A stretch of 64,000 bases of DNA from Alphaproteobacteria bacterium (GCA_017937705.1 JAGBDC010000023.1:2944-66943); one strand, 5' to 3'; shown: positions 39,921 through 47,192, numbered from the stretch's first letter. Numbers and translations: made by a program. The notes: a model not told the origin generated them from the sequence alone.

Positions 39921-41597
39921 ATGAATACAGAATTTCAAATCCCAGAAACTAATGAAGTATTTGCTGATTTGTTAAACGAACAAATGGGTGAAAAGAGCCT
40001 TGTAGGTTCTGTAGTTAAGGGTACAATCGTAAAAATTACTTCGGATTTCATTATGGTTGATGTCGGCCTCAAATCAGAAGGTCGCATCCCTGTTCGTGAA
40101 TTTGGTCAAAATCCGGAATTGAACCTCGGTGACGTTATCGAAGTTTATGTTGATCGTTATGAAGACAGAGATGGCAATATTGTATTATCTCGTGAAAAAG
40201 CTCGTCGTGAAGAAGCTTGGTTAGATCTCGAAAAAGCTATGAACGCCGGCGAACGCATTAACGGTGTTATCTTCGGTCGTGTTAAAGGTGGTTTCACTGT
40301 TGATTTGAACGGTGCTATTGCTTTCTTGCCGGGTTCTCAAATTGATATCCGCCCAATTCGTGATATTTCTCCGTTGATGGGTATTTCTCAACCGTTCCAA
40401 ATTTTGAAAATGGATAAGGTTAGAGGCAATATCGTTGTTTCTCGTCGTGTTGTTCTCGAAGAAACACGTGCTGAATCAAGAGCTGAATTAATCGACGCTA
40501 TCAAAGAAGGTTCTATCCTTGACGGTGTTGTTAAAAACATTACCGATTATGGTGCATTCATTGACTTGGGTGGTGTTGACGGCTTGTTGCACGTTACAGA
40601 CATTTCTTGGAAGAGAATTAATCACCCAGCTGAAGTTTTGACTGTTGGTCAAACAATCAAAGTTCAAGTTATCAAATTCAATGAAGATAACCAACGCATC
40701 AGCTTGGGTATGAAACAACTCGAAAATGATCCATGGCAAAATGTTGCTGAAAGATTTCATGTTGACGATGTATGCAAAGGTAAAGTTACAAACATTACTG
40801 ATTATGGTGCATTCGTTGAACTCGAAGATGGTATCGAAGGTTTAGTTCACGTTTCAGAAATGAGCTGGACTCGTAAAAATGTTCACCCGGGTAAAATCGT
40901 TTCTACATCTCAAGAAGTTGAAGTTAAAGTTCTTGAAGTTGATGAAGAAAAGAGAAGAATTAGTCTCGGCATCAAACAATGCACAGCTAATCCTTGGGCT
41001 GCTTATGTTGAAGAACATCCGGTCGGCACTGTTATCGAAGGTAAAATCAAGAACATTACCGAATTTGGTTTGTTCATTGGTTTGAACGACGAAATCGACG
41101 GTATGATTCACTTGTCTGACATCTCTTGGGATGTTGCCGGTGAAGAAGCTGTTAAAGAATATACAAAAGGCCAAGAAATCCAAGCTAAAATTATTGACGT
41201 TGATGTTGAAAAAGAACGCATCAGCCTCGGTATTAAACAGCTTACAGAAAATGCTAATGCTACAGCTTTAGATGGCTTCAAAAAAGGTGACAATGTAAAA
41301 GCTACTGTTACCGAAGTTGCTGAAGACGGCATTGTTGTTGAAGTAAACGGTGTTTCTGCTAACATCAAAAAAGCTGACTTGTCTAAAGACAAAGCCGGTC
41401 AAGATTTGAGCAACTTCAAAGAAGGTGATGTTGTAGAAGCCAAAGTTACTTCTGTAGAAAAGAAAAAAGGTAAACTTGGCTTGTCTATCAAAGCTCTCGA
41501 AATTGAAGAAGAAAAGAAAGCATTAGAAGAATATTCTAATACAACTTCAGGTTCTTCTTTAGGAGATGCTTTGGGTGAAGCTTTGAAGAAAAAATAA
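39921..41597 (+). CDS. rpsA: 30S ribosomal protein S1
   Basis: Six S1 domains (DVGLKSEG, AFLPGSQ, ITDYGAF, GLLHVTDISW). Confidence 0.97.
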   Translation: MNTEFQIPETNEVFADLLNEQMGEKSLVGSVVKGTIVKITSDFIMVDVGLKSEGRIPVREFGQNPELNLGDVIEVYVDRYEDRDGNIVLSREKARREEAWLDLEKAMNAGERINGVIFGRVKGGFTVDLNGAIAFLPGSQIDIRPIRDISPLMGISQPFQILKMDKVRGNIVVSRRVVLEETRAESRAELIDAIKEGSILDGVVKNITDYGAFIDLGGVDGLLHVTDISWKRINHPAEVLTVGQTIKVQVIKFNEDNQRISLGMKQLENDPWQNVAERFHVDDVCKGKVTNITDYGAFVELEDGIEGLVHVSEMSWTRKNVHPGKIVSTSQEVEVKVLEVDEEKRRISLGIKQCTANPWAAYVEEHPVGTVIEGKIKNITEFGLFIGLNDEIDGMIHLSDISWDVAGEEAVKEYTKGQEIQAKIIDVDVEKERISLGIKQLTENANATALDGFKKGDNVKATVTEVAEDGIVVEVNGVSANIKKADLSKDKAGQDLSNFKEGDVVEAKVTSVEKKKGKLGLSIKALEIEEEKKALEEYSNTTSGSSLGDALGEALKKK

Positions 41598-41617
41598 TCT
41601 TATTTGATTGTTTTCAA

Positions 41618-41650
41618 CAAAACCCGCTTTGAAAACAAAGCGGGTTTTTT
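41618..41650. terminator. Bidirectional terminator
   Basis: aaaacccgctttg-aaaa-caaagcgggtttttt. Confidence 0.85.
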
Positions 41651-41672
41651 GATATAATATTAAAAATAAAAC

Positions 41673-42818
41673 TTATAATGGTTCGGGAATGATTTTGCTT
41701 CCGTAGGGAGGTTCTGTTTCCATACCTTGCTTCAGATAAGTTTTTTCTACAAAGCCCATTTCCCCGTTATCAATCATAATACGATACCAACTTTTATCCG
41801 GCGTAAAACCGGTTACTCTGACCGTCTGACCTTTTCTACCTTTTTTCAATACATCAAATTTTTTACCCGGTCCGTACATAATATCTGTATTATCAGTCAA
41901 ATGATATAATTTACTATTGTCATTGACATCAATAGGAATCTGATAAATTTTAGAAACAACAACATCATCAACAAATTCGGCTCCGCTATCATATTTGACC
42001 TTCTGAAAATATGTGATTTTGTTTTCTTTTTTCATATATCGAAGCATATTATAATGCTGTACAAACGGATAGGATATTGCCAAGAGGAGCAAAAAAGGAA
42101 TTATATATTGATATAAACGTAATGCCCCAAGTCTCCATTGTGGAATTTTTTTGTTATAAACAGGAACATTTATTTCTTTTAAAAATCTTTTTATAAGTTC
42201 TTGCTGATGTTCATCAGCATAATTCAGTGCCTGTATGGCAGATAACATAGCTTGATTGTCCTTATTTTCTTGATGATATGCAATTGCATTATGAACTAAA
42301 AGGACCAAGTTATCATAGTTATTATTACCAATATTCTTTATATTCCCGATTATTGCTTTGATATTACGCATGAAAGCTTTCGGATGCCACCAACCTAAAA
42401 ACCAATTGGAAAGAGAATAGCGTAAAACTTCTTGCTTAGCTTGGTCATAAGTACATACAAGTTTATCTTCTTCTGCTGTGTATTTTATGATTTTGCCGAC
42501 AATTTTTTGTAGATTTACAACTCGCACTAAAGGATTTTCATTATTAAATTTATCTTTAAGTATGCTCAAATTATTCATATCAGGAAAATTAGATGAGCCA
42601 TAAATTTCGCTCAACAAATCGTAAATCAGACGAGTTTTTTCATTTTTTAATACATCATAAGCCACCGATAATTTTTGAAAATGTTCCATTGCATTTTCAC
42701 TTTTATTCGAATCAGGGTGCCAATGTTTAGCTAAATCACGATATTTAATTTTGATAGTTTGTGCATCTGCCAAACCATCAACTTCCAATATGTTATAGTA
42801 ACCTAGAGAATCTTTCAT
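41673..42818 (-). CDS. Membrane J-domain protein with C-terminal SH3b-like domain
   Basis: HPD J domain, TM helix, GPGKKFDVL...V.VTG...WYRI...GFV. Confidence 0.8.
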   Translation of the reverse strand: MKDSLGYYNILEVDGLADAQTIKIKYRDLAKHWHPDSNKSENAMEHFQKLSVAYDVLKNEKTRLIYDLLSEIYGSSNFPDMNNLSILKDKFNNENPLVRVVNLQKIVGKIIKYTAEEDKLVCTYDQAKQEVLRYSLSNWFLGWWHPKAFMRNIKAIIGNIKNIGNNNYDNLVLLVHNAIAYHQENKDNQAMLSAIQALNYADEHQQELIKRFLKEINVPVYNKKIPQWRLGALRLYQYIIPFLLLLAISYPFVQHYNMLRYMKKENKITYFQKVKYDSGAEFVDDVVVSKIYQIPIDVNDNSKLYHLTDNTDIMYGPGKKFDVLKKGRKGQTVRVTGFTPDKSWYRIMIDNGEMGFVEKTYLKQGMETEPPYGSKIIPEPL

Positions 42819-43615
42819 TTTTCCATCAACTTTCGAGCAATGTTTATTACGTCAGCGGCCGCTTCCGAAGTCGGATAACGAGATATTAAGGGCATTTGAT
42901 TTCTAATTGCATCTCTGATACGGGCATCGCGTCTGATAACGCCCAGTAATGGAGGTGCAATTTTCAAAAAAGTTTGACAAGCCTTGCATAATATATCGTA
43001 TGTACGACGTCCTTCTTGCAAATTATCCGCCTGATTCACTACCACCGAAACTTTACATTTCGGATATTGTAAAGACATAATCTTTATGAGAGCATAAGCA
43101 TCGGTTAGTGAAGTCGGCTCATCGGTACACATAACAATAATATGTCCGGCCATTCCCGACAAGATACGTACCGATTTATCTATACCGGCTCCCATATCGA
43201 GTATAACTTTATCATAACTTGAGGAGAGAAGAGACAAATCTTCTGCCAGAATCTGCAACCTGCCTACAGGCATTGTTGCAAGCCCAGAAGAACCAGAGCG
43301 CCCCGCAATTATATCTATGCGAGCCTTATCATAATGATGAACTATTTGGTTTAGTGTTGTTGTCCCTGTAACCACACAGCCTAAATCATGTGAAGTCATC
43401 AAACCTAATTGTATGTCTATGTTGGCCAGTCCTAAATCACCGTCAAACAATAATGTTTTTTCCTTTAATCCGCTTAAGGCATGGGCTAATGTTATGGAAA
43501 ACCATGTTTTGCCAACACCACCTTTACCCGAAGCTATTGCCAACATATTATTATGAGAAGGGAATATATTTCCTATTTCACTACGTGGTGCTATTCGTAA
43601 CTCTTCACTCATCAA
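42815..43615 (-). CDS. flhG: FlhG/FleN (MinD-like ATPase)
   Basis: ASGKGGVGKT, DGDLGLANIDIQLG, DEPTSLTDAYALIK; directly downstream of flhF. Confidence 0.85.
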   Translation of the reverse strand: MMSEELRIAPRSEIGNIFPSHNNMLAIASGKGGVGKTWFSITLAHALSGLKEKTLLFDGDLGLANIDIQLGLMTSHDLGCVVTGTTTLNQIVHHYDKARIDIIAGRSGSSGLATMPVGRLQILAEDLSLLSSSYDKVILDMGAGIDKSVRILSGMAGHIIVMCTDEPTSLTDAYALIKIMSLQYPKCKVSVVVNQADNLQEGRRTYDILCKACQTFLKIAPPLLGVIRRDARIRDAIRNQMPLISRYPTSEAAADVINIARKLMEK

Positions 43616-43619
43616 TCAA

Positions 43620-44567
43620 TTACTCCGTAATAATTCTAGTTAATGAAGAGCTGCTTATTTTAGCCAAACCATTGGCTATTTTAGAACTTATTCCGGCATA
43701 TTCTATTTGCAAACCACAAATAATTGCCGTTGAGAGCATTGCTCCAATACGACGATTAACGTCAAATTTGAGAGGCAACAACCAATTAGCACCTAAATCT
43801 TTAAAAATATCTGTTACATCAACTGCATTATTTGCGTTCATACCACTGTCTATAGTGAGAATTTTATCACAATTAACAGCTCCGCAAAAAGATTGTAAAT
43901 GTTTTACATCATCAGAATAAAAAGGATTAATTCCGGGAGTATCTATTAAAATCATTTTATTTTCTGATTGTGCAGATAGTATTTTATCAAACATTTTTTC
44001 CGGTTGTTTAATAAACTCAAAATCAAAATTTAGTATATCGGCAAAAGCTTTTAATTGATTATTAGTTCCGGCTCTCACATTATCCACACTGATAATCGAA
44101 ACCGGAATATTGCGAATTTTTGCTAAAGTTGCTAATTTTGCCACTGCTGTTGTTTTTCCACTTCCGTGCATTCCTATAAACATCTTTATATTGCTTGAAC
44201 CGGTAAAAAAATTACCATAGTTTAGAAGACGATTAAATGCCTCGGTTAAAATATCTTTATCTTGTATTATTCTTCTTTCGGAAGCAATGCTTCGACAGGT
44301 GGAAAGAATCGCGGCTTCAGATGTTGACGTAAGTTCATGATAAGCAAGACATTCTCTTATATATGAATCATTATATGTTGAAGAGCTTTCGTATATTTTT
44401 TCCTCTTCATCATATAATATATCCTGAGTATCAAGAGCAGCTATCAACTCCATTCTCCCATCGCTCAAAACAGAAGTCGATATAATAACCGCATCTTCTC
44501 CCAACTCTCTTTTAACTTGGGATAAAATTGATGACATATCTGTTGAAACAAATTTTTTTATTTTCAT
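43620..44567 (-). CDS. flhF: FlhF (SRP-family GTPase), divergent
   Basis: MKIKKF...VKRELGEDAVIIS N-terminus; GxxGSGKTT, DNVR, DTPG, LKFD. Confidence 0.8.
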   Translation of the reverse strand: MKIKKFVSTDMSSILSQVKRELGEDAVIISTSVLSDGRMELIAALDTQDILYDEEEKIYESSSTYNDSYIRECLAYHELTSTSEAAILSTCRSIASERRIIQDKDILTEAFNRLLNYGNFFTGSSNIKMFIGMHGSGKTTAVAKLATLAKIRNIPVSIISVDNVRAGTNNQLKAFADILNFDFEFIKQPEKMFDKILSAQSENKMILIDTPGINPFYSDDVKHLQSFCGAVNCDKILTIDSGMNANNAVDVTDIFKDLGANWLLPLKFDVNRRIGAMLSTAIICGLQIEYAGISSKIANGLAKISSSSLTRIITE

Positions 44568-44812
44568 AAATCGCCACCATCAACTAAAATTTCGGTAAGA
44601 CTTATGCCCAATTCTTTTCCGGCCAGAATGAGTTTTCCTCTAGCAGCCAGCATATCGTTTACATAAATGTCAACGGTTTCTCCAACTTTTTTATCCAACT
44701 CAATAATCGAACCTTCTTTTATATCAACGAGCTGAGCTAAAGTTAACTCTGTTTTTCCGATAACAGCAGATACTTTAACACAAACATTTGCAACAGCGCC
44801 TAAATTATTCAT
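44564..44812 (-). CDS. fliN: FliN (SpoA domain)
   Basis: VSAVIGKT...GSIIELDKKVGETVDIYVNDMLAARGKL. Confidence 0.8.
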   Translation of the reverse strand: MNNLGAVANVCVKVSAVIGKTELTLAQLVDIKEGSIIELDKKVGETVDIYVNDMLAARGKLILAGKELGISLTEILVDGGDL

Positions 44813-45308
44813 TTTCTAAAACTCCGTTCAACTGCTCTCGTATTCTATCCAATATTTGTTCTGTTGAAAAGACCTCTTCGTCATTTCCCCAAATAATTTT
44901 ACATTCTGCAAACGACAAACTACTATCTTTGTGTAAATGAACATGTCCGGAAAATGAATTTTGAATAGCTAAATTTTCCAAGTTATCTTTTACTGAAGAT
45001 ATCGCATTTTCAGGAAGATAAATATCAAGTCTTTTTTGCTTAGCTAAATCTGGAAAGCGACGAGTTATAAATTCATTTATTATTTCATTACTACAATTTC
45101 GTGCCAGAGCCGGAGCTATTTCTGTCAACACCATTTTTATAAGTTTGATATTTTGTTCATTCCTATCTTCTAACAAAATCTGCAATTTTGCATTTATGTC
45201 TTTTAATAGAAGATTATCATTTTGATTTTTATTCAAAGATAAATCAAATACGGGCGTCTTGTCCCCTTCTACAAAATTATCAAATTGAAAAGGCACAAAA
45301 TCTTGCAT
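44805..45308 (-). CDS. FliH-like protein, reduced
   Basis: Position between fliG and fliN; C-terminal DSSL...CKIIWG resembles FliH/SctL. Confidence 0.5.
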   Translation of the reverse strand: MQDFVPFQFDNFVEGDKTPVFDLSLNKNQNDNLLLKDINAKLQILLEDRNEQNIKLIKMVLTEIAPALARNCSNEIINEFITRRFPDLAKQKRLDIYLPENAISSVKDNLENLAIQNSFSGHVHLHKDSSLSFAECKIIWGNDEEVFSTEQILDRIREQLNGVLENE

Positions 45309-46382
45309 TTACCTTCCTCGCAAGGTATCGGCATACGTTCTTTTACAAATATTGACTATCTCTTGTTGAGCCTTTTCTATATCTTTAAGTTTTATCGGCC
45401 CCAAACGAATTAGTGCTTCACGAATTATTTCGGCCTGTCGAGACGGCATTGCGTTATAAAAATGTGCCCTCGCCTGTTCAGAAGCCCCTCTTAATGCAAT
45501 TACAAGAGATGCCTCATTAATTTTTGAAATTAAATTTTGCATATCATTTTGAGACAACAACAACACATCTTCAAAAGTTATAAAATCCTTTTTTATGCTA
45601 TTTGCTGTTTCTTCATCATTTATTTCCAATGCTGATAATATGCGACTTTCCGTATTATCGTCAAAATATCCGAATATTTTTGAAATATGCGGAAGAATAT
45701 CCTTTTCATCTTCTATGTTATCAGCTATGGTTTTGCCAATTACTCCCACCAAATCCGTGTCGGCAGGATGTGAATTTAGCATTTTACTGATAACTTCGGC
45801 GGCAAAAGAATCATTAAACAAAGACAGAACAGCAGCACATTGTTTAGGTTCCAGCATAGACATAACAATCGCAACCACCTGCGGACATTCATTTTTTAGG
45901 TATCTTGCCAAAACTCCGGCATTTAACGAATTTAATTTTCTCCAACTTGATGCTTCCGGATTTCGATGACATGAGCGTAAAACAGAGGCAACTTCGGCTT
46001 CATCAACAAACCGACTTGCAACATTTTCTTTCGGCAATACAGGAAAATCATCCATCTTTATTATCGGCTGTTTTTCAATATTATTTTGTTTGTTTTGTCG
46101 TTTTACAAAAATCAACTTTATTAAAAATAGCAATGCAAGAAAAACAACCATTAAAAGAACAAAAATCTCAACTATTTCCGAAAAACCGGAGCCAACATAA
46201 GACTTGAATTCATCAAATAGCACATACCCCTTGGTTGAACGTAAAAAATCTTTTACTAAAAAATAACAACTACCGCTTCCGCTCAAAAGAGCAAGGCAAA
46301 AAGCAAAACCGCAAGCAAATGTTGCGATAGCACACACAAATGCCGTTATAATCGTTGTTTTATCTAATCTGCTGTTACTCAC
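45309..46382 (-). CDS. fliG: Two-TM anchor fused to FliG middle and C-terminal domains
   Basis: LARYLKNECPQVVAIV (EHPQ motif), FITFEDV, ALRGAS, LGPIKLKDIEKAQQEIV; FliG N domain replaced by two hydrophobic helices. Confidence 0.75.
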   Translation of the reverse strand: MSNSRLDKTTIITAFVCAIATFACGFAFCLALLSGSGSCYFLVKDFLRSTKGYVLFDEFKSYVGSGFSEIVEIFVLLMVVFLALLFLIKLIFVKRQNKQNNIEKQPIIKMDDFPVLPKENVASRFVDEAEVASVLRSCHRNPEASSWRKLNSLNAGVLARYLKNECPQVVAIVMSMLEPKQCAAVLSLFNDSFAAEVISKMLNSHPADTDLVGVIGKTIADNIEDEKDILPHISKIFGYFDDNTESRILSALEINDEETANSIKKDFITFEDVLLLSQNDMQNLISKINEASLVIALRGASEQARAHFYNAMPSRQAEIIREALIRLGPIKLKDIEKAQQEIVNICKRTYADTLRGR

Positions 46383-46442
46383 TCTTTTTCCTTTTTTAAC
46401 TTTTTATTAAGATTATCTTATTTCATAAGTTATTAGAACAGT

Positions 46443-47192
46443 TTATTGCCAGATATTCACAATATTTATAACCGAATCTCTAATTTCGGAAGCTGTTTTT
46501 TCATCGTTCAAACGATGGTTGGCATCTTTTAACAATTTAATCACTATTTTTTCAGATGTAATATATTGAGCATACTTCAACACTTCTTGCCATGGAACGC
46601 TTGCATCTTTCATCCCTTGAATGAGATGAACGGGGCAGTCTATTTTCCATAAATTTTCACCTTCAGGCAAACAAGATGCTTTTGCCGTTTCAATAAATTT
46701 TGCAGTTATTGTATAAGTAAAATCATTATTAGTAATTTTAAAGTATCCGTTTTTATCTAATTCTGATTTTTGTTCGTCGGTGATTATTTTTTCAAATCGT
46801 CTGACAAAATTCGGAGCAGCGGCTAACCCTAACACCCCTTTGATTCGTTCAGGATATTTTATGGCGGTCAATAACGAGAGCCATCCGCCCATAGAAGCTC
46901 CGACCATAACAAAATCAGTTTTCACTACATTCTCAATCACCTCAAAAACCTGATTTTTCCACACTTCAAAATCAGCTTTGGCAAAATTTTCATAATCACT
47001 TCCGTGTCCGGCATAATCGAAACGAACAAAGCCTAAACCAAGCTCTTCACATACATTTTTTACTACCTCAGGCTTATGCCCCCATGCATCGGAACAAAAG
47101 CCATGCAGATAAACTATGGTTAAGTTGTTATTTTTAGGCTCGATATATTCAAAATCTGTTGCAAAGTGAGAATTAAAAGTGTATTTTGTCAT
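46443..47192 (-). CDS. Alpha/beta hydrolase
   Basis: LHGF, RFDYAGHG, GASMGG, D...HRL. Confidence 0.88.
   Translation of the reverse strand: MTKYTFNSHFATDFEYIEPKNNNLTIVYLHGFCSDAWGHKPEVVKNVCEELGLGFVRFDYAGHGSDYENFAKADFEVWKNQVFEVIENVVKTDFVMVGASMGGWLSLLTAIKYPERIKGVLGLAAAPNFVRRFEKIITDEQKSELDKNGYFKITNNDFTYTITAKFIETAKASCLPEGENLWKIDCPVHLIQGMKDASVPWQEVLKYAQYITSEKIVIKLLKDANHRLNDEKTASEIRDSVINIVNIWQ

Follow-up and report, generated by a model that had tools for sequence, protein, structure and literature searches.

A predicted FliF-FliG fusion within a candidate flagellum-independent remnant of the polar-flagellum assembly network in Alphaproteobacteria

In polar flagellates, FliG is bound by the N-terminus of FlhF, the N-terminus of FliM is bound by FlhG, and FlhG acts on FlhF. 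The N-terminal DQAxxLR helix of FlhG supplies the glutamine that stimulates FlhF, and the C-terminal tail of FlhG is a membrane-targeting sequence (PMC12826062). Campylobacter jejuni mutants in flhF, flhG, fliF, fliM, and fliN make minicells, and mutants in fliH, fliI, and type III secretion system (T3SS) genes are reported not to (PMC3228812). A later C. jejuni study adds fliG and fliY to the minicell mutants and reports that the cytoplasmic (C) ring localizes FlhG (PMC6946799). The Vibrio protein SflA, a single-pass membrane protein with a DnaJ domain, acts together with FlhF and FlhG and is described in that report as Vibrio-specific (PMC7226244). Laboratory fusions of FliF to FliG from Salmonella and Vibrio still form rings, and the Salmonella fusion supports motility (PMC10941966; PMC11481574). 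The roles of the C ring, FlhF, and FlhG outside motility have so far been studied only in bacteria that build flagella, where the two kinds of role are inseparable. The 64,000-nucleotide stretch of an alphaproteobacterial genome analyzed here (GCA_017937705.1, JAGBDC010000023.1:2944–66943; the window) contains an operon of six co-directional genes on the minus strand, running from position 46382 to 41673. The operon encodes a remnant of a FliF-FliG fusion (FliG*), a shortened FliH (FliH*), FliN, FlhF, FlhG, and a protein with a J domain, a transmembrane (TM) helix, and an SH3b-like domain (the J protein). With a probability of about 60%, the module to which the operon belongs is what remains, independently of any flagellum, of the network that assembles polar flagella, and it has been kept because its parts still work together and is not a decaying relic.

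The module resembles the switch of polar flagellates, formed by the C ring and the membrane and supramembrane (MS) ring. Both have the middle and C-terminal (MC) domains of FliG, FliN, the N-terminal peptide of FliH, and a FliM that includes the N-terminal motif, the middle fold, and the C-terminal SpoA domain, and the genes of the module show orthology and synteny to genes of flagellated sister genera. By contrast, the module has no FliG_N domain, the window form has no FliF ring-building domains, and FlhA, FliP, the rod, hook, filament, FliI, stator, and chemotaxis input are missing; the stator-contact residues are partly lost. The joining of FliF and FliG in one chain is shared with the engineered fusions; however, here it is natural, occurs in cells without flagella, and includes deletion of the FliF tail and FliG_N. 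In clade C, one of the clades within the genus, the ring-building motifs (RBM) 1 and 2 have been dropped as well, and the window form has dropped the whole periplasmic part. As in C. jejuni, for which a non-motility role has been shown, a MinD-like FlhG, FlhF, and MS- and C-ring proteins occur in a cell without MinCDE. Campylobacter, however, has working flagella, whereas the cells studied here encode MipZ and their FlhG is tail-less. The J protein is, like SflA, a bitopic membrane protein with a J domain tied to the FlhF/FlhG system, but it has the opposite topology, with its J domain at the N-terminus and not at the C-terminus as in SflA, and the outer domain is SH3b-like instead of being made of tetratricopeptide or Sel1-like repeats (TPR/SLR). 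Structures of FleN and FlhG are the best Protein Data Bank (PDB) matches of the window FlhG, whose deviant Walker A motif is intact; unlike them, FlhG of this family is missing about 30 C-terminal residues, and the window FlhG is missing the enhancer glutamine. In a literature search of incomplete coverage, no paper came up that describes a FliF-FliG fusion occurring in nature, a C ring that persists in cells lacking a flagellum, or the J-domain protein seen here.

FliG* and its relation to FliF

FliG* (357 residues; 45309..46382, minus strand) matches the Pfam models FliG_M (3.1e-13) and FliG_C (3.5e-27), both above cut-off, whereas FliG_N reaches 16.9 bits against a cut-off of 25, with the match falling on the M domain. 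The M and C-terminal domains occupy residues 128–356, approximately, and are preceded by TM helices and a linker (residues 1–127). Hydropathy places TM1 at residues 8–37 and TM2 at residues 62–97, with a loop of about 25 residues between them. In the AlphaFold2 (AF2) model, which has a predicted local distance difference test score (pLDDT) of 70.9 overall and 80–95 in the MC domains, helices span residues 8–34 and 65–93 and are followed by a disordered linker (residues 94–127). The best Foldseek matches of the model are crystal and cryo-electron microscopy chains of FliG MC domains (4fhr_B, E 3e-9).

The origin of the TM helices is indicated by the longer proteins of clade C, which have 460–484 residues in the ten loci examined. 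The three of them that were tested all match YscJ_FliF_C together with FliG_M and FliG_C in Pfam, and a profile of the ten proteins aligns to residues 227–414 (RBM3) of sister-genus FliF, with internal shortening (99.5% probability, E 3e-23). The RBM3 periplasmic piece is flanked by TM helices. Judged by these domain matches, the clade C proteins are natural FliF-FliG fusions without RBM1, RBM2, the FliF tail, and FliG_N. In the loop of FliG*, two conserved stretches align with the last strand of RBM3 and with the R-G-D segment that precedes TM2 of FliF; this alignment is short, and it is suggestive and not proof. By comparison with clade C, the membrane tether of FliG* is read as a FliF remnant from which the periplasmic domain has been lost too. 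FliG* contains two TM helices and a loop of about 25 residues in place of ring-building domains, and the genome has no match to YscJ_FliF (PF01514). A preliminary description of the window had proposed a membrane-tethered FliG without an MS ring; the two TM helices agree with the tethering, but the tether appears to be a stub of FliF, and an MS-ring remnant is thus present.

Among 23 sequences of the short form, 13 of the 30 invariant alignment columns lie within residues 7–53, including cysteines of TM1 and of the loop, which argues that the membrane part of FliG* is more than a passive anchor. Residues C17, C24, C29, and C39 of TM1 and the outer loop are invariant or nearly so, as are aromatic residues, a pattern atypical of a plain anchor; the model gives the loop helices low confidence. 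A database search retrieved 15 clusters of full-length short FliG*, of which those with a name are called "hypothetical protein", and the other matches were ordinary FliG proteins aligned over 54–69% of the query.

Other components of the module

The six genes are packed with intergenic gaps of 0, -8, -4, +4, and -4 nucleotides, in line with the preliminary description, which had reported them as abutting, overlapping, or four nucleotides apart. The protein identities that it had proposed hold in Pfam, in NCBIfam, and in alignments. It had also correctly stated that no full fliF lies upstream and that neither flhA nor flbD separates fliN from flhF; none of these three genes is present at the window locus. 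The end of the upstream alpha/beta hydrolase gene is separated from the start of FliG* by an AT-rich leader of 60 nucleotides (46383..46442, minus strand).

FliH* (167 residues; 44805..45308, minus strand) has no Pfam match, and its match to the NCBIfam FliH model (1.6e-5) is far below cut-off. Its C-terminal domain aligns with that of sister-genus FliH, which carries the Pfam FliH domain, with approximately 80 central residues missing, and tblastn aligns it at 29% identity to residues 110–225 of FliH from the flagellated sister genus represented by genome G036. The N-terminal peptide F-x-F-D-N-F ... L-D-L-S-x-N is invariant with that of canonical FliH. In other species this peptide contacts FliN. 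FliN of the window (82 residues; 44564..44812, minus strand) consists of the SpoA/FliMN_C domain only (PF01052, 7.8e-20, 71 bits against a cut-off of 23.8). Across the genus, the FliH peptide occurs in three formats: within FliH*, as a 59-residue mini-protein in clade B, and fused to FliN. The fusion to FliN in a single open reading frame (ORF) was seen in four clade C genomes (G023, G018, G010, and G021; loci L027, L030, L031, and L036), in which the separate fliH is gone, and it arose independently of the clade B mini-FliH. The three packagings of the peptide argue for selection on the contact with FliN.

The preliminary description had confined the module to the six genes; this does not hold, because FliM*, a DUF6468 protein, and a second FliN are encoded on other contigs, and the module thus extends beyond the operon. 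A weak Pfam FliM match in one congener (G017) pointed to a gene for a 292-residue FliM-like protein that is followed by a DUF6468 gene and lies beside uvrB. In the window genome, the corresponding locus (contig C11; L047:7066-9766) encodes a 275-residue FliM*, a 145-residue DUF6468 TM protein, a 130-residue TM protein, and UvrB. FliM* has no match to the Pfam FliM model in this genome; however, it aligns to sister-genus FliM over 263 columns in hhalign (98.9% probability, E 1e-17), and the top Foldseek matches of its AF2 model (pLDDT 69.6) are FliM chains of the Salmonella C ring. It contains an N-terminal EIDAL-type motif, a CheC-like middle domain, and a C-terminal SpoA domain. The locus is orthologous to the fliM locus of the sister genus, from which a FliL-sized gene and two neighbors have no counterpart in the window genome. 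FliM* is present in all 22 second-locus regions examined (21 relatives and the window genome) and adjoins DUF6468 in 21 of them, the exception being a contig of 3.3 kb. The N-terminal motif is kept in 8/8 clade A and 11/11 clade C sequences, although CheW is absent. Ratios of nonsynonymous to synonymous substitution rates (dN/dS) of the DUF6468 gene and the gene for the 130-residue protein are 0.05–0.10, with 0.08–0.10 for DUF6468 in the close pairs compared. The 130-residue protein belongs to no family, nor does a 284-residue protein encoded divergently upstream; these two and DUF6468 are kept beside FliM* in most congeners.

The second FliN, FliN2 (81 residues), is encoded on the minus strand of contig C21 (L048:8325-8570), directly upstream of the lipid A/Kdo genes DUF374-waaA-lpxK. 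Genomes of flagellated sisters and of the window's clade contain three FliMN_C domains each, and most of those of clades B and C contain two; none was found in G020, G013, G002, and the FliG-less genera. A second small FliN occurs also in flagellated sister genera; among members of the window's own genus, it was seen in no clade but that of the window.

FlhF of the window is a short SRP-type GTPase (SRP, signal recognition particle; 315 residues; 43620..44567, minus strand). It matches Pfam SRP54 (1.3e-24), and its best NCBIfam model is FlhF (TIGR03499, 3.7e-36), at 125.6 bits, which is below the equivalog cut-off of 174. Synteny shows it to be orthologous to the flhF product of the sister genus. 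Among 12 aligned sequences, the G1 motif GSGK[TS] is invariant, the G3 motif D-T-P-G is present in eight including that of the window, and the G4 motif is K-x-D.

FlhG (266 residues; 42815..43615, minus strand) is a MinD-like ATPase of the FlhG/FleN type, with the MinD fold and a deviant Walker A motif that is intact throughout the genus. Its best PDB match is FleN (5j1j, 1.4e-38, residues 8–254 of the 285-residue chain), and Geobacillus FlhG is also close. The protein ends four residues after the last aligned position, whereas in the chains of FleN and FlhG about 30 further residues follow, and this tail is missing across the whole family alignment, including flagellated members. FlhG is 69–97% identical within the genus and about 70–73% identical to that of three flagellated sister genera. 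In FliG-less genera the identity is 31–47% and the Walker A signature is degenerate. At three loci, two from FliG-less genera (L040 and L041 of G030 and G034) and one from a flagellated genus (L043 of G035), the signature lysine of the FlhG-like protein paired with the J protein is missing or shifted.

The J protein (381 residues; 41673..42818, minus strand) matches DnaJ (1.6e-18) and, just under cut-off, SH3_3 (1.8e-5). As the preliminary description had predicted, it consists of an N-terminal J domain with an HPD motif (H34, P35, and D36, invariant in 22 sequences), a cytoplasmic domain of about 160 residues, a TM helix at residues 230–253, and a predicted external SH3b-like domain. Of 36 family genomes, flagellated or not, 35 have a full-length homolog, and FlhG-like genes are likewise found in 35 of the 36. 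The genes of the pair are direct neighbors in each of the four FliG-less genera examined and also in the flagellated G035, where they lie away from the flagellar cluster. The view of the J protein as part of the module, taken from its place in the operon, is therefore amended: it pairs with FlhG family-wide, whether or not flagella are present. The wider family of the J protein consists of unnamed clusters in Pseudomonadota. A co-fold of FlhG with residues 1–232 of the J protein, based on alignments, had a score of 0.00, which gives no answer either way. In G030 and G034, tgt and a LOG/lysine-decarboxylase-like gene come after the FlhG-J pair.

Loss of the flagellum and retention of the module

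Contig C18, which carries the window, is one of 34 contigs in a 1.58-Mb genome with a completeness of 99.15% and a contamination of 0.49%; its close relatives are animal-gut Alphaproteobacteria, and every genome compared is a metagenome-assembled genome (MAG). Profile searches of the window genome gave no match to FlhA, YscJ_FliF, FliP, Flg_bb_rod, Flagellin_N, or CheW. The export gate was searched for as FlhA and FliP, and neither was found; FlhB, FliQ, and FliR were not searched for. FliI was not found, the related matches being atpA, atpD, and rho only, whereas the flagellated sister has an additional FliI. One MotA_ExbB gene is present against three in the flagellated sister, and this lone copy may be tolQ. 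Searches of the genome by tblastn with FliF, FlbD, FlhA, FlgE, and products of fliM-flanking genes of the sister genus retrieved nothing. No FlhA was found in any of 28 further species belonging to the genus, 26 of which have a FliG-like gene. The two misses are G005, in which the contig begins within flhF, and G002. These results agree with the preliminary description, which had suspected that the cell is non-flagellated.

In a first sample of the family, four other genera had FlhA, FliM, and a canonical FliG of 340 residues, and four had neither FliG nor FlhA. Among 201 family genomes from 23 genera, canonical FliG (approximately 340–350 residues) is present in 14 genera and no FliG in eight; the aberrant forms are confined to the window's genus. 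The gene order in the flagellated sister G036 is flgE-fliF-fliG-fliH-fliN-flbD-flhA-flhF-flhG-(552-residue unknown)-dnaJSH3. The operon keeps this ancestral order, as the preliminary description had recognized, and the separate fliF, flbD, flhA, and the gene for the 552-residue protein are gone from the window's genus. The 552-residue protein, encoded between flhG and the J-domain gene (L037:5249-6907), belongs to no Pfam family and has no counterpart in the window genome; it is possibly a landmark specific to the flagellum and lost together with it.

Selection on the retained genes was estimated by the Nei-Gojobori method from comparisons of the window with two close relatives and of those two with each other, in which the synonymous divergence (dS) is 0.26–1.2 and unsaturated. 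In this trio, dN/dS is 0.07–0.11 for FliG*, 0.09–0.17 for FliH*, 0.02–0.06 for FliN, 0.04–0.05 for FlhF, 0.02 for FlhG, and 0.05 for the J protein, and the flanking genes for ThrS, a glycosyltransferase, and the hydrolase have values of 0.007–0.07. When all close pairs are considered, the ranges are 0.07–0.19 for FliG*, 0.05–0.17 for FliH*, 0.04–0.14 for FlhF, 0–0.03 for FlhG, and 0.05–0.12 for the J protein; FliN has a value of 0.34 in one pair of low divergence. For FliM*, dN/dS is 0.13–0.19 within the window's clade. Purifying selection thus acts on all parts when close pairs are compared. Comparisons between clades are saturated in dS, and the identity of FliG* falls to 28–45%. Genes that are intact at this divergence have been kept long after the loss of the flagellum. 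The order of the main locus is preserved in 22 of 22 loci examined from relatives, and all frames are intact in these and in the window, which bears out the earlier statement on intact frames. The preliminary description had taken a complete flagellar regulon elsewhere in the genome, or dN/dS near 1 together with patchy loss, as a sign against its interpretation. A complete regulon was not found and dN/dS is far below 1 for the six genes in close pairs, but parts have been lost stepwise within the genus, so that neither sign is fully present; overall, its interpretation is partly supported.

Two trees, one built from FlhG and the J protein and rooted with G036, and the other built from flanking housekeeping genes and rooted at the midpoint, both separate clade C from a group in which clade A, with the six-gene state of the window, is paraphyletic with respect to clades B and D. 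Parts of the module have been shed stepwise across the genus. The N-terminal motif of FliM* was considered as a marker of FlhG binding and rejected, since clade B keeps FlhG without the motif or FlhF; by its distribution in the sequences, the motif goes with FlhF or with full-length FliH no less closely than with FlhG.

Function of the retained network

The retained parts (the FliG MC domains, FliM with its N-terminal peptide, FliN, the FliH peptide, FlhF, and FlhG) correspond to the network at the cytoplasmic face of the flagellar base in polar flagellates, and none of the secretion, axial, stator, and chemotaxis parts sought in the window genome is present. In FliG*, the two FliF-derived TM helices tether the middle and C-terminal domains of FliG straight to the inner membrane. 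FliG*, FliM*, FliN, FliN2, and the FliH peptide would assemble, probably at a pole, into a scaffold that resembles a C ring and lies on the cytoplasmic side of the membrane, and FlhF and FlhG would act on it as they do in polar flagellates. Having no membrane-targeting tail, FlhG would depend on protein partners for contact with the membrane, namely the scaffold and the J protein. The output may be a flagellum-free spatial task of the FlhG-J pair, such as the organization of the pole, the envelope, or division. The scaffold genes would then persist as regulators or anchors of FlhG and be shed stepwise where FlhG adapts. The assembly, localization, and output of the scaffold are inferred.

A stronger form of this proposal is tentative and falls somewhat short of even odds: that the natural FliF-FliG fusion, FliM, FliN, and the FliH peptide form an exapted rotor/switch complex, an autonomous, non-rotating, membrane-anchored C-ring organelle of the cytoplasm, driven by FlhF and by FlhG without its membrane-targeting sequence and wired to the cell wall by the J-domain/SH3b protein, which serves as a polar organizing platform in bacteria that have long been without flagella. 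If the scaffold assembles, the function of the C ring beyond turning becomes directly testable. The genus would be a natural separation-of-function set, in which the secretion, axial, and torque parts are gone and the FliG-FliM-FliN-FlhF-FlhG network is under selection, and its graded reduction series shows which parts depend on which. The natural FliF-FliG fusion with RBM3 only could be a minimal ring-forming unit. The uncharacterized J-domain/TM/SH3b protein, which is always paired with the FlhG that throughout the family has no membrane-targeting helix, is a candidate for a new class of partners of MinD-type ATPases.

Several observations weigh against a network whose parts still work together. 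In the torque helix of the window FliG*, the arginine and one acidic residue are kept relative to sister-genus FliG, the next two acidic positions, including the aspartate, are changed, and in clade C the arginine is lost and the EHPQ-like motif has decayed; these torque-helix residues are presumed to contact the stator. The window FlhG begins within the enhancer motif, of which it retains the final L-R without the glutamine that is kept in sister-genus FlhG. FliM* is under more relaxed selection in clade C (dN/dS 0.26–0.49). Clade B (four loci) has lost flhF and has fliH cut to a 59-residue ORF with the N-terminal peptide alone, and the FliM* motif is missing in all three clade B sequences examined. 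Clade D (G020) is left with FliG*, FlhG, and the J protein alone; the contig of G013, its sister, stops right after FliG*. G002, at 92% completeness, has no part of the module, and the eight of 23 sampled family genera without FliG show that the set is dispensable there.

An alternative to a network retained for its joint function in general is a specific role in division, in which the remnant C ring gathers FlhG at the poles and FlhG blocks polar Z rings, as in Campylobacter and without a Min system. The retained gene set closely matches the set of C. jejuni minicell genes, none of 36 family genomes was found to encode MinE, and a search of the window genome for MinC gave no match. The missing MinE and MinC were at one stage taken as strong backing for such a role, which the preliminary description had also proposed, and this backing was lowered once a full-length MipZ was found in the window genome (275.9 bits, C21:60778-61539) and in 23 of 24 congeners sampled. 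Because MipZ is present, the usual alphaproteobacterial division-site system is available. Furthermore, sister genera without FliG, FliM, and FliN still keep the FlhG-J pair, and FlhG here has no membrane-targeting tail, so that a Campylobacter-like division block is unlikely. MipZ shares contig C21 with FliN2, at a distance of about 15 kb.

It is improbable, more so than the division role, that the module uses FlhF and FlhG to place another envelope machine, such as a type IV pilus, a system like the type II secretion system (T2SS), or a VirB-type type IV secretion system (T4SS). The window genome does encode a GspE/PilB-like ATPase with a PilC/GspF-like partner, two PilT-like ATPases, and VirB10 and VirB11 of a T4SS, at loci L074–L077 on contigs C19, C25, and C11. 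However, these genes have no synteny with the module and no link to FliG, FliM, or FliN, and such machines are common in genomes without it.

Slightly less probable again, and already disfavored, is the explanation that the genes are non-functional relics of the lost flagellum that await decay. The stepwise losses within the genus, the complete loss of the set from eight sampled family genera, and the erosion of the stator-contact and enhancer motifs would fit such relics. By contrast, frames are intact in the loci of all 22 relatives, dN/dS in unsaturated pairs is 0.02–0.19 for all six genes, and the genes are retained down to 28–45% amino acid identity with saturated dS; new conserved features have also appeared, namely the invariant Cys-rich TM1 and loop of FliG* and the independent repackaging of the FliH peptide. 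That a complete but highly divergent flagellum or T3SS was overlooked is very unlikely and likewise disfavored, since FlhA, FliP, rod, flagellin, and FliI, which are among the most conserved flagellar families, have no match in the window genome, the tblastn queries of the sister genus drew a blank, and FlhA is missing from all 28 congeners, even if the escape of FliM* from its Pfam model demonstrates that divergent parts can hide.

A scan of positions 41400–46700 for sigma-70 promoters returned 21 sites against 22.6 in shuffled sequences, which is no excess, with sigma-54 and sigma-28 promoters outside the scan, and a terminator scan of the same interval likewise gave no excess over shuffles. 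Near-identical contigs of metatranscriptome type overlap the operon at its two ends and in parts of FlhG, and a contig from an RNA library spans positions 46329–46442, including the 60-nucleotide leader; these contigs are short and of low depth, and carry-over of DNA is possible. One RNA-type run and two untyped runs cover small shares (0.07–0.27) of the operon, with no silent control stretch for comparison. Together, the contigs are a weak hint that the operon is expressed. Between positions 41673 and 50351, synonymous divergence of the window from locus L014 of a relative is uneven (dS 0.26 for thrS and 0.89 for FlhG), which hints at recombination or at a strong constraint on codon usage in the flanks. 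In genome G007, the FliG*-FliN-FlhG stretch occurs twice with identical scores, on contigs C75 and C102, which reflects either a true duplication or a duplicate created during assembly.

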